Origin: a virus
Taxonomy: Duplodnaviria > Caudoviricetes
Virus record (IMG/VR): IMGVR_UViG_3300042307_000844
Reading direction: 5' to 3' (one strand)
Length of the DNA: 64,000 nucleotides
Positions 1-55,958 of this stretch are shown one piece after another. The notes under the pieces were generated by a model. It was not told the DNA's origin and made no database searches. It saw only the letters and a list, made by a program, of their open reading frames with translations. Made by a program: the position numbers and the translations under genes. Numbering within the stretch: position 1 is the stretch's first letter; each line of letters opens with the position of its first letter.

Positions 1-162
1 GGAGAGCTTTCCATTAAAGATGGTCAGAGATTAGCTGATCATTGTAATCTTGATATTACAATTGACAAGGAAATGACACTGGCTGATATTTTCAATTATC
101 ATAAAGAAAACACTTCTACGAAGTCGTTTGAGGATCGTCCAATGGGGTTTGGGAATTTTTAA
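1..162 (+). CDS. 3' end of a gene starting before the window, possibly an AAA+ ATPase
   Basis: Frame 1 is open from base 1 to TAA at 160-162 (GELSIKDGQRLADHCNLD...MTLADIFNY...RPMGFGNF*). The 'TLADIFN...GFG' tail resembles phage AAA ATPases; this is inference only. Confidence 0.45.
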   Translation, partial: GELSIKDGQRLADHCNLDITIDKEMTLADIFNYHKENTSTKSFEDRPMGFGNF

Positions 163-889
163 TTTTGTTTCCGCCTATGGCATTTTTATTTCCCATCAAA
201 CTTTGAGAAATTCTTTTTCTTCGTTCTTCTGGAACTGGGTTACCATAGCTTGGATTATTTTCACCGCTCAATTTTAGAGATAATTTTAATCTTTCGTTGG
301 GGTCTTCGTATCGTTTTCTCATTATTTCAGCAGTTTTTCTTTTTCCTTCTTCGGAATTAGCTCGGATTTTTTGTGATCTTCTCATATTTTCAATAGCTTC
401 TGGAGAAGCTTTAACCCCCAATCTAGACTTTCTAATATTTTCCCTATGCTCTTCTGTGAATGGTTTCTTTTTCTTACCCTTCTTAGATAAGCTCATATTT
501 ATTCTAGCTTCAGGTGATGCTTTCTTTCCTAATTTAGCTAGTGACATTTTTTTTCTACTTTCTTCACTATATTTTCTTCCAGTATTATCTAAACCTCTAG
601 TGCAAACATTATACCCAAGTGGAACCAAACAATTATATTTTATTATTAATTGTTCTTCTAAGTCATGTAAAAATGTTTTATTGACATCTGGTAGGTAGTA
701 TATTTCTACGTGGAAATTATTAATACCATGTTTTTTAAAAGCTTTTGAAATAACTTGGTGTTTATGGGATCGGTGTTCACTTATTCGTTTATGGATATTC
801 ATCGTTTCCCCAATATAATACTTCCCATTCACCTCATTGCGAATGATATACACCCCCGGTTTGTTCTCAAATTTATCAGTTAGTCTCAT
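116..889 (-). CDS. GIY-YIG homing endonuclease (Seg-like) with NUMOD3-type repeats
   Basis: GVYIIRN...YYIGET...R at the N-terminus, then repeated (S/T)EESRKKMS / SPEARINMS / TEEHRENIR / SPEAIENMR units. Confidence 0.9.
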   Translation of the reverse strand: MRLTDKFENKPGVYIIRNEVNGKYYIGETMNIHKRISEHRSHKHQVISKAFKKHGINNFHVEIYYLPDVNKTFLHDLEEQLIIKYNCLVPLGYNVCTRGLDNTGRKYSEESRKKMSLAKLGKKASPEARINMSLSKKGKKKKPFTEEHRENIRKSRLGVKASPEAIENMRRSQKIRANSEEGKRKTAEIMRKRYEDPNERLKLSLKLSGENNPSYGNPVPEERRKRISQSLMGNKNAIGGNKIKNSQTPLDDPQTTS

Positions 890-42900: not shown

Positions 42901-44816
42901 AATCACAGTCAATTATATGTTCCTTGACCCATGCTTTGGCTTCCTTGATTGTCAGGTGTTCCATGGGAGTTCCGATATGGTATTTCTCCCCATCAATCTC
43001 TTCAATACCTACGGTTTCAATTGTCATGGCGTAATTATGGTTTAGTTTTTATTCAGCAGTCCATCCCGAATCGCTTGCGTGGTTTCCTTGTTCCACCCAT
43101 ACAAACGGGCATCCATGTCCAGATTCATCAGGGCATTGGGAATGTTTCCGCTATAGTGCGCGGTTCCCAGAAAGTTCCACACAGCGGTTTCGTTCACCCT
43201 TGCGCGATTGGCAAGCTTTTCAATCTCTTCCCTCGGTATCTTGTTCATGGTCGCAATATTAATTTAGTTTTTAAGATTTCCAGTTCCTTTCGAATCTCTG
43301 CGATCTTTACCCGATTTTTAATAAAGTTATCCACGATATACATGGGAACTTTACTTTTAATTAAAACCTGAGAGGTTTCATCCATTGACAACATCCCCGC
43401 AAGTTTGATTTCCAATCGATCAATCTTTTCCGATAGTGTTTCTCTTTTGAATATGTTCATATGTGTATTATGGTTTAGTTTTTAAGATTCTATCTCTCTT
43501 CATGTTCAAAGGGAGGAGACACGTAAAAATTATCATACCAGAGAGAATAATTTTCGTGATAAACGGGACTGAGAGGATTGTTGGACAACCTAAATTCCAT
43601 GTCGCTTTTTGCAGAGATCATTAAAGCGCACAAACCACTATCGTTTTTAGACTCCCACGCTCTTATCATGGATTTGATTTTACTTTCCAGAACACAAATC
43701 CTTTCGTGTTGTGCGGATGAATATTGTCCATACCTATTCAATTTCCTTTTCATGATAGGATTGTGTGCTAGTTTTTAAAGGACTTCAATTCCCCGCGCCA
43801 TCAGATATCCCGTCATAACACCTTGGATATATGATTGCGTTTGCTGGTATGTCCCATAATCATCGGGAACATAATATTCCGATATCATATCACAATAGAA
43901 ATATCTATCATCACAACGAAAATTGTCAGTGGAGAATCCCGCACCCCAATTATAATTGAGGAATCGTTCAATCAATTCTTGCCGATATGGTTCCATGTCT
44001 TCTTCAAACGCATGGTCGTATTTGATATATATAATTTCTTTTTGCATATCATACATCGTGTGAGAAATCAATTGCAATATCCCATAGAACGTGATCGGAA
44101 TCATCCAACCATTCCTCATGTCCCAGCGCATCTGCACAACATTGTGCTGCTTCCGTCCAATTGGAAAAGTCTTGCATATTAATGGCGAACCATTTTTCAA
44201 TTTGTTTTTCCTCTGTCATGTCGTAATTGTGTTCTATTTTTTATGCGCCACCGGAGCATCCCCACAATCGTTCTCTTGAACGTAGCAAGCTCCCACATCC
44301 TGAAAAACATCCAGAAATTTCTGGATCAGTTCCACGCTATTCCCCCACATTCCAAGAGAGAAAATGATTCCCCGCTTGCCAAGTTCCCCGTGGCATTCCT
44401 CAAAATCTTCCGTGTCCATATGGACAAACATTTGCCGTTCGTCAACCCCATCCTTGAAACGGAAGATATAGAAATTCCAGTGAGGATCATATTCAGGCTT
44501 TACAAATACATTGGAATTGCTTACAAATGTATTTGTAGCTTCTCCTTGAATAGTTCTGATTACATCAAGCACCCTCTTACCAATCTCCCGAACATCAATG
44601 TTGTCGGTAACTACATATCCTTTAGTGTCGCATCCCATGGTTGTATTATGGTTTAGTTTTTAAAAGCAATAATCTTATTCCAAGATTCTCCCACCTTGTG
44701 ATTCCATTTCCATGCCAACTTATCAACCCGACGATTCCAGTATTTCCACCTACGGAAATTCCCACGTATCAGGCGATTTTCATTTTTGATTGCTTGGGAT
44801 AACTTTTCTCTCGTAG

Positions 44817-45038
44817 TCATGGCTTGTTAGCGATAAGAGATTCGAGAGCTACCACCTGCTCGTGGACTTCGCATGTTGCCAAATTGTAGTCTGGTTTTGT
44901 GCCGTGCTCGTATCCGCCGTTATAGAGGCAGACGAGCGACATACACTCTCCATTCGCGTGTCGGTTGCAGCGAGATTTCAAATCGCTAACAAGGCGGTGG
45001 AGGACAACAGCCTCCCGTTGAGTCTCAGGTGTATTCAT
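44817..45038 (-). CDS. Captured integron-type cassette gene (Cys-rich, 73 aa)
   Basis: Bounded on the minus strand by GTTAGCGAT (44990-44982) and its exact reverse complement ATCGCTAAC (44834-44826). Confidence 0.75.
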   Translation of the reverse strand: MNTPETQREAVVLHRLVSDLKSRCNRHANGECMSLVCLYNGGYEHGTKPDYNLATCEVHEQVVALESLIANKP

Positions 45039-45080
45039 AGATTTTCGGCGGGAGGCTGTGCCTCACCTTGGTCGATATTG
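44984..45080 (-). mobile_element. Degenerate attC-like site
   Basis: AACAAGGCGGTGGAGGACAACAGCCTCCCG...CGGGAGGCTGTGCCTCACCTTGGTCG(AT); one core is replaced by the phage promoter's -10. Confidence 0.7.
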
Positions 45081-46524
45081 GTTTAGTTTTTAAATAGAAA
45101 TTCCTGCTCATTGTCGATGGATTCCTTACACTCTTCCATGTCATCAAACTTGAGAAAACGTTCTTGCGTATCGGAATAATACTCAAACATTCCAGAGGGG
45201 AATAGAATAGTGATACCTTTGCCGTTGTGTTCAATGTAATCAGTCATGGCTTTATTATCGTTTAGTTTTTAAGATCACCGATCAGTCCTTGCGCTTGCCC
45301 AGACCTTGACAATCTCTCCACTTTTCAACTTAACTTCCACGCTGTTAATGGTTGCCGAATCCTCAATGACTTTCTCAATATCCTTGGAAAATTGATAGGA
45401 TGGGCAAGATGAATATCCGATTTGCCATTGTTCATCCAATTCTTGGCATTCCTCTCGCTCAATTTCCTCCCCATCCCTTGTCCCTTCGGAGATACGCCAT
45501 TCCGCCACAATATCCATGGGAATGCTATAATCACCTTGGCATCGCATGAACAAAGGATAGGCATAACCTCCCCGCACATCACATCCCGTATGGGCATAGC
45601 ATACCATGATAGCTTCGTCATCGTAAATCCAATCCCGCTTCACATTATCAAAATGGGAATATACTTCCCATACATAGTCCTGAGATAAGTCATTCTCATT
45701 ATTATATGTATTGTCCCTTGCAAGTTGTGTTAATCCCAACACTTCGGTTGCAAAGGTTTTCCCTGCTTCAAACCATGATAAATCGGAATTCTCTTCCAAT
45801 GCCGCCCATGCTTCAAATTGCTCTTGGATATCGAAATCCACTTCACAAGTTTCAGCAAGGAAAAGAGCGGTTTCAATGGTTGCGGTAACATCGTTACCAT
45901 ATACATCGATCCTCACCATCGGTTGCTCTTCGGAGATTGGAGGCTTTTCATAATGCCTTCCGTAGTAGTCTCCACTATCCAACATGGACTTGCCTGTATT
46001 GAATCGGAATGCCTTGGCGATTGTCTCTTGGTTCTTGGTCATGTCGTAATTGTGTTCTAGTTTTTAATGCGTCTTGGTCTTGTCGGATTTGTCGGGCGCG
46101 GTTCATCCACATCATTGACATTGCGAAAGATGTTCCTGTATGCCGCCACAATCACCCCCATGGGCAATCCTGAAACTTCCGCCATCTTTTCCATGCTCAC
46201 ATCTTCCAGAATGTATCGGGCGGAACCAATGGCTTGCCAACGATCATCGTCAGTCATGTCCTCATAGGGCTTGATGTTTTCAATGTCCATGTCGTAATTA
46301 TTGTTTAGTTTTTATGGGAGGAGATAGTAGCATTCCCCATCCTCATCCCTCCAGTATCCCCCGAACAGACTTTGATCCTTACACCATTCAAAGCGTATCA
46401 TCATCCCCTTGCATTGCTTTTCCGTTCCCCGGAAATATTCGGGAAGATCAAGCATGTCCGTTCCCTTGTGCAGATGTTCCAGAGTGTGTTTAACGATCTT
46501 CATGATAGGAGTATGCTCTAGTTT

Positions 46525-55481: not shown

Positions 55482-55701
55482 AAGAAATACTCAGCGTCCT
55501 TGCCCAGCTGCTCGATGGCGTCCTCGGCGTTGTCGTCGCAGTGTCCCATGTCCTCCTCTTTTTCGTTTCCAGACGGATCGAGCGGGTAGGTGCTGAACAC
55601 CCATTTTCCGGGCATTCCGTCAGTCCACCCTCCTCGAACGTATTTCCCGCCGGGGCGGATTCCAAGACCTAGACGTTTGGCTTCTTTCTGTATTCGAGCA
55701 T

Positions 55702-55735
55702 TCATGGTCGGCGTGCCTCCACTTGATCGTTCGCC
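55702..55735 (-). mobile_element. Truncated attC (left arm only)
   Basis: GGCGAAC-GATCAAGTGGAGGCACGCCGACC runs straight into the next ATG. Confidence 0.65.
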
Positions 55736-55958
55736 GTATGCTTCGTGTGAGCCGAGTAGATCAGCAGCGCCACGGGAGCGATGCCGAAATGCCACTCGCT
55801 GACATTCCCGCAGAGTCGGCACTTGTAGGTTCCAAGTCCGTCGCCATTGCTCGCCAGCCAGTAGGCTTGATCGTTGAGCATGTCGTGGCACTTCGGGCAG
55901 TAGGTCACGCATCCACAGTTCTGGATGATGTCGCGCTCTCTGCGTGTCCACCGCCAAC

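Follow-up and report, generated by a model that had tools for sequence, protein, structure and literature searches.

The 248-bp insert found in the 64,000-nt stretch of phage DNA analysed here, which we refer to as the window, is one complete integron-type cassette, in which a small gene follows a single attC-type hairpin. According to the explanation that we consider best, and to which we assign as a whole a probability of roughly three in four, a circular 248-bp cassette was inserted once and precisely by an attC x attG-like reaction; the phage would represent a natural case of a virulent T4-like phage from lake water that gained a gene by integron-style insertion. The layout put forward in a preliminary description of the locus, a single integron-type cassette directly behind a phage promoter-like box, is borne out, and the strings quoted in it (the box, the repeats and the ATGA overlap) all lie where it had placed them. 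The features of the locus are as follows.

45083-45247, minus strand: upstream 54-aa phage gene, the end of which falls inside the box
45081-45091, minus strand: promoter-like box AAAAACTAAAC, which also holds the stop of the 54-aa gene
45075-45080, minus strand: -10-like hexamer CAATAT, left half of the target, ending in the AT of the AT|C junction
44827-45074, minus strand: inserted cassette, 248 bp, attC and then gene body, reading from C-GACCAA... to ...ATCGCTAA
45074, minus strand: first base of the cassette, C
45073-45068, minus strand: spacer GACCAA (6 nt)
45067-45049, minus strand: 5' arm GGTGAGGCACAGCCTCCCG (19 nt)
45048-45018, minus strand: 31-nt loop, containing the ATG at 45038-45036
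45017-44996, minus strand: 3' arm CGGGAGGCTGTTGTCCTCCACC (22 nt, three unpaired bases)
44995-44991, minus strand: spacer GCCTT (5 nt)
44990-44982, minus strand: GTTAGCGAT, in bottom-strand reading the R'' half of the R box, identical with ORF codons 17-19 (V-S-D)
44984-45080, minus strand: attC-type site in its present form (97 nt), assigned from model R1, covariation and folding
44834-44826, minus strand: ATCGCTAAC, i.e. ATCGCTAA|C, far end of the cassette and R' half of the R box, exact complement of 44990-44982
44821-44826, minus strand: phage spacer CAAGCC, right half of the target, as aligned to the empty sites
44817-45038, minus strand: 73-aa ORF with four invariant cysteines, its start codon inside the attC loop
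44653-44820, minus strand: displaced 55-aa phage gene, the ATG of which shares ATGA (44820-44817) with the TGA of the cassette ORF

Empty sites, junctions and mobility of the unit

The insertion/absence polymorphism that the preliminary description had proposed to look for does exist, as the site is filled in the window and is found without the cassette in three sister phages (L015, L064 and L068). In L015, the empty site reads ...TTTAAAAACTAAAG-CAACAT-CTAACC-ATGACTACG, and the insert is missing between flanks that share 90% and 98% identity with the window; in L064 and L068 the box is likewise located directly 5' of ATGACTACG. The left half of the target aligns as CAATAT in the window, CAACAT in L015 and CATACT in L064 and L068, and the right half as CAAGCC, CTAACC and CCAACC, respectively, each abutting the start of the displaced gene. 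The spacer reconstructed for the window differs from those of the empty sites at two to three of six bases, and the ancestral target is thus matched approximately. The displaced 55-aa gene is 98% identical in L015, where it directly follows its own box, and the L015 contig was the sole match when IMG/VR was searched for the exact start of this gene. The upstream 54-aa gene is present in L015 and missing from L016, L017, L064 and L068. A blastn search with the region against 50,697 phage records gave no match.

Deletion of positions 45074-44827 in silico yields AAAAACTAAAC-CAATAT-CAAGCC-ATG, i.e. the order box-6-6-ATG. Counted from the end of the 11-mer box to the ATG, this 12-nt (6+6) gap occurs at 29 of the 36 boxes of the window, while the copy at the filled site is an outlier with 42 nt. 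The 36 copies of the box (at most one mismatch; 2.5 expected) are all located on the minus strand, and the box is regarded as a putative promoter; a scan of positions 44500-45400 for terminators and, by a generic sigma-70 model, for sigma-70 promoters found none. On the plus strand, the junctions read CTTG|TTAGCGAT and TTGGTCG|ATATTGG and hence represent the G|TT of an attC joined to a G|AT target, the plus strand of which reads CTTG|ATAT; the crossover at the far end falls between 44827 and 44826. Thus, the junction sequences match the product expected from insertion of an attC at a 5'-GWT-3' ("attG") site. The CTAAC-C spacer of L015 was also considered as an AA|C target and was rejected, since the junctions that it predicts disagree with those in the window.

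The same reaction accounts for the altered triplet of the upstream site. The R-box triplets of the cassette are GTT (44990-44988) and, at the far end, AA|C (44828-44826), while the outer upstream AAC reads ATC exactly at the phage join, as had been pointed out before. AAC and GTT are preserved in 44-47 of about 50 sites of this type, and ATC in place of AAC was observed in only three of them (the window, L033 and L039), each of which was the first one found in its own array. We rejected decay as the origin of ATC, because recombination with a G|AT target leaves precisely this triplet.

Gene exchange at promoter boxes is a familiar feature of T4-type phages, in which small early genes are swapped among sister phages at repeated boxes (PeSL-type modules), and L015, L016, L017 and L064 differ from the window by such early-gene swaps. 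In contrast, the cassette is accompanied by a box on its upstream side only and breaks at attC cores rather than at boxes, which argues for a separate mechanism of gene flux in the same region.

Copies of the cassette in other contigs delimit the same unit. Homology starts just past the upstream AAC and stops exactly at ATCGCTAAC; the copies in L010, L011 and L012 are 248 bp long and 82-86% identical, and that in L014 has 265 bp. In five contexts of the 73-aa gene the upstream attC is constant and the downstream sequence is different or lacking, strongly indicating that the hairpin travels together with the gene body. L035 and L043 have the upstream attC and the gene body in common and diverge immediately past the next AAC, and the breakpoints in independent contexts lie inside the AAC triplet, at AA|C. 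The copy in L001 is eroded, with AAC changed to AAA, an altered 5' arm and an extended ORF; the element in the window looks recent and precise, and not eroded.

A polymorphism by itself is directionless, and cassettes inserted into genomes can be excised by the integrase at the point of insertion (Loot et al., bioRxiv 10.1101/2022.09.11.507474). The cassette might thus be ancestral and have been lost by precise excision in the lineages of L015, L064 and L068. We consider this unlikely: one filled allele is opposed by three empty ones in two gene contexts, i.e. with and without the 54-aa gene, and the GC content of the cassette (0.528, compared to 0.40-0.44 in the flanks) is foreign to the phage. 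In addition, the present R box (ATC/GTT, with its outer bases unmatched) would be a poor substrate for excision. The mechanism and the family involved are the same for gain and for loss.

The attC-type site and the ends of the cassette

The attC-type site is ordered as R' CAATATC, GACCAA, 19-nt arm, 31-nt loop, 22-nt arm, GCCTT and R'' GTTAGCG, with ATC as the R' triplet where AAC is expected. Features of attC sites are the AAC/GTT triplets and two to three extrahelical bases opposite AAC, with a 6-bp stem between the first, usually a G, and the last, usually a T (Nivina et al. 2016, PMC5027507). In the phage hairpin, the 3' arm leaves a C (at about position 16/17), a T (about 21) and another T (about 23/24) unpaired. 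The stem between the outer two measures 6 bp, and the first one is a C in place of the usual G. Both the spacers (6 and 5 nt) and the total length of 97 nt fit the limits for attC sites (5-6 nt and 57-141 bp). The stem has an exact core of 11 bp, with predicted folding energies of -19.9 kcal/mol for DNA (z -4.4) and -36.7 kcal/mol for RNA (z -5.0).

The assignment to the attC class is supported by a covariance model, R1, which is itself phage-derived (trained on 16 phage sites). R1 scores the hairpin at 106.9 bits, and the upstream attC does have both arms, as described previously. In total, 55 R1 sites were obtained from 29 sources, with arrays in many viral contigs. Sites of this type also occur at another locus of the window, as had been suggested, namely in an island at 55-56 kb with two clear matches (E 6e-9 and 3e-7) and a weak third one (E 0.027). 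Among 51 distinct sites, 88.8% of the cells are paired and all 26 pairs have changed on both sides; for the stem helix alone the values are 94.9% and 19 of 19, and the paired values of the stem were unmatched in 500 shuffles, keeping in mind that the alignment is model-fitted and somewhat favours structure.

R1 also matches four attC sites next to a true integron integrase (399.7 bits against the TIGR02249 cut-off of 265 bits) in a bacterial genome, L061, a verrucomicrobial MAG with the NCBI title 'uncultured Akkermansia sp.'. All four occupy the integrase-sense strand, in canonical terms the bottom strand of attC, and R1-type sites occur in 34 of 101 genomes of the same bacterial order. The repeats of the L061 array belong to one family, like those of Vibrio cholerae, and resemble the phage site in the spacer motifs AACG-CCAAG ... 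CGCCTTGTT, in a G(T/G)GA(T/G)GGCAC arm, in bulges on the same arm and in large loops; one of the L061 cassettes also has a bottom-strand ORF that begins with an ATG in the loop. In contrast to the chromosomal array, the phage site has neither an integrase nor an attI nearby, and the listed ORFs of a phage array, L038, point in the direction of the bottom strand. When bacterial genomes were queried with the exact 19-nt arm, six matches were obtained, of which one, in L047, is a real site; the other five were dismissed as chance matches in GC-rich genomes.

No integron integrase or other tyrosine recombinase was found when the window's 20 largest ORFs were examined, and intI is absent from two complete or nearly complete viral contigs that carry arrays. 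The arrangement of a complete integron, i.e. intI and attI adjoining the cassettes, was therefore not found in the window, and the integrase of a host is presumed to be the actor. A hairpin without ties to integrons would also fit the missing integrase, the gene's non-classic orientation and the position of the start codon in the loop, by which the hairpin acquires a plausible role as RNA. Such a hairpin might regulate a mobile phage gene from its 5' side, or might mark the end of a different hairpin-guided element such as one of the IS200/IS605-like or HUH type, with either another enzyme or illegitimate recombination responsible for its movement. Such an origin appears quite improbable, as the same model detects the attCs of a true integron on the expected strand and recurs in a third of the genomes of that order. 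Moreover, the AAC/GTT cores, the spacers, the bulge geometry and the complementary cassette ends are all attC-like, and the breakpoints fall into the AAC triplet across independent contexts.

The two ends of the cassette are related as expected for a single R box. GTTAGCGAT and ATCGCTAAC are complementary at nine of nine positions, and the inverted repeat is exact over 12 bp (CTTGTTAGCGAT / ATCGCTAACAAG). The preliminary description, which had the 73-aa gene bounded by a 9-bp complement, was thus correct with regard to the complement, but not with regard to what it encloses: GTTAGCGAT lies inside the ORF, and the repeats therefore bound the cassette body. In other cassettes of the family, five to six of the six outer positions of the ends are complementary for 13 out of 20 adjacent pairs, compared to baseline means of 2.5 in situ and 2.2 at random. 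Chance yields about 1.3 inverted 12-mer pairs per shuffled window, against 12 overlapping ones observed, at about six loci, and the corresponding number of 9-mer pairs within 250 nt is about 74. The repeat alone is within chance, and its significance is therefore drawn from the comparison with other sequences.

The complementary ends also bear on the proposal that the downstream attC had been cut and that the locus represents a later, domesticated stage, in which the cassette once lay between two attCs, the downstream one was lost and the upstream one damaged from AAC to ATC. There is attC-like sequence on either side of the gene body, and an eroded copy of the gene does exist in L001. The downstream element is, however, the 9-nt R' half that is present at the far end of every cassette; ATCGCTAA|C is the cassette's own end, which pairs with GTTAGCGAT in the circle. 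The locus thus has only one attC, and this one is whole. The adjoining AAGCC was examined as a possible attC remnant and rejected, as the sequence that follows AAC corresponds to the phage spacer seen where the site is empty. Finally, removal of exactly AT|C...AA|C restores the 12-nt spacing, which is not expected from trimming, and in view of this and of the score of the hairpin we regard the trimmed-attC scenario as very unlikely. That the gene is an ordinary, vertically inherited phage gene flanked by fortuitous repeats, frequent as 9-bp inverted repeats are by chance, has a practically negligible likelihood considering that the site is empty in sister phages, that unrelated contigs share the 248-bp unit and that the structural model matches strongly.

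Orientation and product of the cassette gene

The 73-aa ORF is located on the attC's bottom strand, as follows from the match of R1 to the integrase-adjacent attCs, all of which lie on the canonical bottom strand. Consequently, the attC is positioned 5' of the gene and provides the ATG and the first 16-17 codons. A classic cassette has a promoterless top-strand ORF with the attC downstream; here, the attC precedes the gene and holds its start. The bottom-strand gene and the attC-first layout had been overlooked in the preliminary description. The last three codons of the ORF are derived from the phage (the C of AAC, followed by AAG CCA TGA), and the next gene starts in the overlapping ATGA, as noted before.

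Homologs of the 73-aa protein are 86-95% identical. The comparison to L010, L011 and L012 revealed 17-22 synonymous and 5-6 non-synonymous codon changes, which indicates that the ORF is under purifying selection. The wider family, of phage type and with four cysteines, comprises 168 clusters and was encountered solely in phage and metagenome sequence. A copy of the gene in bacteria, as envisaged earlier, did not emerge, since no relative was returned when the protein was compared by tblastn with 185,579 species genomes; a search with the family profile in the 101 genomes of the order of the MAG was also negative, but shows little as it had no positive control. Thus, the cargo has no known bacterial donor integron. 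Pfam, PHROGs and PADLOC gave no hits for the 73-aa, 55-aa and 54-aa proteins. With 9 sequences as input, AlphaFold produced a mediocre model (pLDDT 70) for which Foldseek retrieved nothing from the PDB, while a model from 45 sequences (pLDDT 93) brought up only generic helical matches with a VIA Z of at most 5.2. A structure search of BFVD with the latter model and a profile search of PDB sequences with the 73-aa family yielded nothing. Longer members of the family bear unrelated zinc-ribbon or ClpX zinc-finger domains and provided no functional lead. As a mere guess, the four-cysteine protein could be an early host-directed or counter-defence factor.

Proposed route of insertion and relation to known systems

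In the scenario that we favor, a circular cassette of 248 bp with one attC and a small gene would have entered the T4-like phage by one precise insertion. The target would have been 5'-G|AT-3' on the plus strand (AT|C in gene sense), between the -10-like hexamer and the ATG of the 55-aa gene, a leaderless early gene behind the promoter-like box. The reaction would resemble that by which an integron integrase joins the folded bottom strand of an attC to a non-att 'attG' (GWT) site, presumably catalyzed by a host integrase. The variable loop of the attC supplies the start codon, and the 3' arm encodes roughly residues 7-17. Transcription from the phage box might now begin at the foot of the attC hairpin, presenting the AUG for translation in the 31-nt loop. 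Having crossed the right junction, the ORF ends at the TGA that overlaps the displaced ATG, and the displaced gene may be translated by coupling.

Integron integrases have been demonstrated to insert cassettes at genomic 5'-GWT-3' sites, cutting after the G, and a single attC that arises from such attC x attG insertion in the absence of an integron integrase is referred to as a SALIN; cassettes of this type are expressed when they adjoin a resident promoter (Loot et al., bioRxiv 10.1101/2022.09.11.507474). The locus in the window resembles a SALIN in that a single attC with a CDS is located at 5'-G|WT-3' outside an integron and away from other att sites (no other R1 site of the window lies within about 10.9 kb), with junctions at G|AT and, at the opposite end, at a reconstituted G|TT, and in that it adjoins a resident promoter-like element. 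It differs in that the recipient is a virulent T4-like phage with a natural empty allele rather than a bacterial chromosome, that the insertion has split the promoter-like box from a leaderless start, and that the gene is on the attC's bottom strand. A second precedent is provided by published attC clusters of lytic phages that lack an integrase, from which five of six tested attCs were recombined by IntI1. These are likewise integrase-less attC cassettes, and the 55-56 kb island of the window is of the same kind. However, the description of these clusters, which was based on IntegronFinder, included neither a precise insertion with its empty site nor a GWT junction or start codons in loops, and the cargo here is a member of a phage gene family for which the searches of bacterial genomes came back negative.

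To our knowledge, the origin of isolated cassettes by integrase-driven insertion at GWT sites has been proposed and has so far been shown only in laboratory assays. In the present case, sister genomes from nature display the filled as well as the empty allele of a single event of this kind, with a virulent phage as the recipient. The insertion suggests that integron recombination may reach the DNA of lytic phages, and T4-type phages, whose early genes are shuffled through boxes, would have a further, site-specific way of gaining genes. The attC-first design with a start codon in the loop could explain how promoterless cassettes are expressed wherever they land, and the confinement of the cargo to phage and metagenome sequence bears on the question of where cassettes originate. 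It might tentatively be speculated, although we do not consider it the probable case, that virulent lake phages trade small genes of their own as phage-adapted integron cassettes, with the gene placed on the bottom strand and a portable translation start provided by the attC loop. If so, a single reaction of a host integrase at any GWT site behind a promoter would install an expressed gene, integron integrases would act on the DNA of infecting lytic phages, and phages would be a reservoir, perhaps even the birthplace, of cassettes.

Cassette locus and its empty counterpart

The preliminary description placed a single integron cassette directly behind a phage promoter-like box, a claim that holds. 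Its reading of the element as trimmed and domesticated could not be upheld: the locus contains a whole, precisely inserted and probably recent single cassette of the SALIN type, with its gene on the bottom strand of attC. All sequence strings cited in that description were found in place within the locus, the surrounding genes of which lie on the minus strand:

45091-45081, minus strand: promoter-like box AAAAACTAAAC
45080-45075, minus strand: CAATAT, directly after the box
45074, minus strand: C, then GACCAA, then GGTGAGGCACAGCCTCCCG, after CAATAT
45038, minus strand: ATG within a 31-nt loop, after GGTGAGGCACAGCCTCCCG
After the loop, minus strand: CGGGAGGCTGTTGTCCTCCACC, then GCCTT
44990-44982, minus strand: GTTAGCGAT, after GCCTT, then the rest of the 73-aa ORF
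44834-44826, minus strand: ATCGCTAAC, after the body of the 73-aa ORF, then AAGCC
44820-44817, minus strand: ATGA, after AAGCC

The inverted repeat of the cassette is exact over 12 bp, and the hairpin stem has a perfect core of 11 bp. The repeat taken alone is weak evidence: inverted 9-mer pairs at most 250 nt apart arise often by chance, and a shuffled window yields about one 12-mer pair. It also does not bound the gene from outside, as had been stated, since its 5' copy sits within the 73-aa ORF and not ahead of it.

Sister phages were retrieved via the neighbouring 255-aa gene. In one of these, L015, no sequence corresponds to the stretch between the flanks, which are 90% and 98% identical to those of the window, the empty site reading ...TTTAAAAACTAAAG-CAACAT-CTAACC-ATGACTACG; in two others, L064 and L068, the box similarly resides immediately ahead of ATGACTACG. 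The insertion/absence polymorphism proposed earlier as a check is thus present, filled in the window and empty in these three phages, and no attC-like site was found in the fetched parts of the sister phages. Removing the 248 nt from 45074 to 44827 from the window leaves AAAAACTAAAC-CAATAT-CAAGCC-ATG and restores the 12-nt spacing between box and ATG. The GC content of the insert is 0.53 versus 0.40-0.44 in its surroundings.

Genomic insertion of cassettes by integron integrases has been shown at 5'-GWT-3' sites, with the cut after the G; cassettes inserted in this way are expressed when near a promoter, and isolated cassettes found in genomes have been named SALINs (Loot et al., bioRxiv 10.1101/2022.09.11.507474). 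On the plus strand, the junctions read CTTG|TTAGCGAT and TTGGTCG|ATATTGG, which are the products to be expected if the cassette attC (…G|TTAGCGAT) recombined with a target CTTG|ATAT. Because the junctions match these products, the ATC described in place of the outer AAC, which is indeed present at the join, is what recombination with a G|AT target leaves behind and not a mark of decay. Only three of the sites found carry ATC (window, L033 and L039), and no other site was found ahead of any of them in its array. In contig L033 (10740-10960, minus strand), the ATC that opens the array immediately follows a sigma-70 promoter close to consensus, TTGACA-N17-TACTAT|C; the third case, L039:901-1001, reads TACCAT|C. 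It may be that first cassettes are encountered, or retained, just behind -10 elements.

A comparison of window positions 44200-46100 with the sisters L015, L016, L017 and L064 reveals that the set of small genes between the 255-aa and 134-aa genes varies, the 54-aa and 55-aa genes being variably present and a 71-aa gene swapped in. As the breakpoints coincide with promoter-like boxes in every case, genes in the cassette region are also exchanged in a second way, via the boxes.

Relationship to attC sites of phages and bacteria

In attC, it is the bottom strand that recombines; its 5' arm includes 5'-AAC-3', with cleavage between A and C. The arm opposite AAC holds the extrahelical bases, with 6 bp separating the first and last, spacers are 5-6 nt long and sites span 57-141 bp (Nivina et al. 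2016, PMC5027507). Similarly, the gene-sense strand of the cassette has AAC (ATC in the window) on its 5' side, spacers of 6 and 5 nt, a site length of 97 nt and a 3' arm with three unpaired bases (C, T and T), of which the outer two are separated by 6 bp. The only departure from this definition is the first unpaired base, a C where G is usual. As the gene-sense strand has the features of the bottom strand, the gene lies on the latter, the reverse of its orientation in a classic cassette.

A covariance model built from 16 phage attC-type sites (R1) identified in the window the cassette site and two sites of the 55-56 kb island (E 6e-9, 3e-7), all on the minus strand, thereby linking the two loci; a third, weaker R1 site appeared once filters were off. 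In total, R1 yielded 55 sites over 29 sources, many in arrays. Among 51 distinct sites, 88.8% of cells were paired, with both-side changes in all 26 pairs, and none of the shuffle and slid controls came near these values. Also within the window, ACGGCGAAC-GATCAA-GTGGAGGCAC (55700-55745, minus strand) resembles the 5' half of an attC and has its exact complement partner, GTTCGCCGT, at 55965-55957; the model found no complete hairpin there, and this site may have been truncated, or the start of the next ORF may overlap it.

Relatives of the 73-aa protein at 86-95% identity occur in freshwater metagenome and viral contigs. In a DNA alignment of five different contexts of the cassette gene, homology starts a few bases past the upstream AAC, 6 nt before GGTGAGG, and stops exactly at ATCGCTAAC, past which the sequence differs in every context. 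Contigs L010, L011 and L012 carry copies that equal the window insert in length (248 nt) and are 82-86% identical to it, and in L010, L011 and L014 the gene resides within a row of small ORFs separated by like-built hairpins. In L001 (2996-3303; one of the 61.6-kb phage contigs L001-L009, with RusA and DnaC-like genes), the same four-cysteine gene has an eroded attC, AAC being changed to AAA, the 5' arm altered and 12 codons added at the N-terminus of the ORF. Here, in a phage of an unrelated type, the copy is genuinely domesticated. The exact 19-nt arm is present in 14 IMG/VR contigs, 12 of which have an intact hairpin, and the gene bodies that come after GTT in these bear no relation to the 73-aa gene; in the other two (L041, L042) the hairpin is truncated.

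Three agreeing lines define the mobile unit, in gene sense, as C-spacer-hairpin-GTT...body...AA: the upstream hairpin of the 73-aa gene is constant in the five contexts while the downstream sequence is variable or absent; contigs L035 and L043 have an upstream hairpin variant and gene body in common and diverge immediately past the next AAC; and, by comparison with the empty site, the window insert itself includes the upstream hairpin. In 13 of 20 pairs of adjacent array hairpins, the 3' box of one hairpin and the 5' box of the next show complementarity at 5-6 of 6 outer positions (for example GTTCGCCAT/ATGGCGAAC and GTTCGCGCA/TGCGCGAAC), whereas the agreement between the two boxes of one hairpin in place does not exceed random (2.5 vs 2.2). 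Such complementarity across gene bodies is the hallmark of a cassette with ends that join to form a single site, and it lends meaning to the 9-bp complement noted in the preliminary description.

A true copy of the 19-nt arm was found in one bacterial genome, a 7.3-Mb MAG titled 'uncultured Akkermansia sp.' (G001), with an integron integrase at 399.7 bits (TIGR02249 cut-off, 265 bits). Its contig C40 (L061:9409-12962) harbors a true integron, consisting of the integrase and an adjoining array of four attCs identified by R1, all on the integrase-sense strand, the canonical bottom strand. These attCs have spacer and arm motifs in common with the phage sites and belong to the same sequence family; one cassette has a bottom-strand ORF (11518-11090) with its ATG in an attC loop resembling the phage loops. 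The search, a phage-derived model run on a bacterial integron, reverses the direction of the attC-model test proposed earlier, and its matches tie the phage sites to real integron sites, with the polarity fixed independently. Of 101 sampled genomes of the MAG's order, 34 contain R1-type sites; a single genome has up to 17 matches, several of which form clusters. This order (G037 and 33 other genomes with R1 sites) is a candidate host or source of the phage cassettes.

Predicted expression, and the cargo, in a T4-like phage

The window encodes a T4-type portal (PF07230, 295 bits), a gp15 tail-sheath stabiliser, both ribonucleotide reductase subunits and ThyX; a homing-endonuclease-like ORF with GIY-YIG and NUMOD3 (116-889, minus strand) adjoins the gp15 and gp20 structural genes. 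This gene set identifies the virus as a T4-like myovirus. No close DNA relative of the window region was found among deposited phages (blastn, 50,697 phage records). The AAAAACTAAAC motif occurs in 36 copies with at most one mismatch between about 23.7 and 62.4 kb, all on the minus strand (chance expectation 2.5), and in 29 of these ATG follows after exactly 12 nt, the spacer being a NATAAT-like hexamer plus 6 nt. We infer that the box is a promoter giving leaderless messages; a generic sigma-70 scan did not pick it up. The copy at the cassette locus is an outlier, with ATG at 42 nt.

As RNA, the cassette hairpin is predicted to fold at -36.7 kcal/mol (z -5.0), placing the AUG in the 31-nt A-rich loop without a Shine-Dalgarno sequence. 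Compared with three copies, the 73-aa ORF shows 17-22 synonymous versus 5-6 non-synonymous codon differences and is under purifying selection. The ORF continues past the right junction, so that phage DNA encodes its tail (the C of an Asn codon, then Lys-Pro-stop); the tails of the other copies differ. The TGA of the ORF and the ATG of the 55-aa gene overlap; the 55-aa gene no longer has its own spacing between box and ATG, yet is 98% identical to the L015 copy. Translational coupling to the 73-aa ORF would be the simplest way to keep the 55-aa gene expressed.

The protein family comprises 168 clusters at E ≤ 1e-3, with four invariant cysteines and the motif CNR-x-NG-x-C-x4-C...ATCE-x-HE. A confident AlphaFold model (pLDDT 93) displays a helical hairpin with a cysteine-rich connector; fold, PDB, Pfam, PHROG and PADLOC searches gave no match. 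It might be speculated that the 73-aa protein is a metal-binding early protein. No relative was found by tblastn in 185,579 species genomes, nor did the family profile, in a search without positive control, match in 101 genomes of the MAG's order. Among distant members, L077 lies in an attC context and L076 and L078 lie outside such contexts.

CALINs are known in phages (Qi et al. 2023), and SALIN/attG insertion is of a kind already known in bacteria; here, the recipient is a virulent phage. New are the occurrence in nature of both the filled and the empty site in a virulent phage, the GWT junction at a phage cassette, the placement of the cassette inside what would be a promoter-to-start spacer, and a start codon carried by attC.
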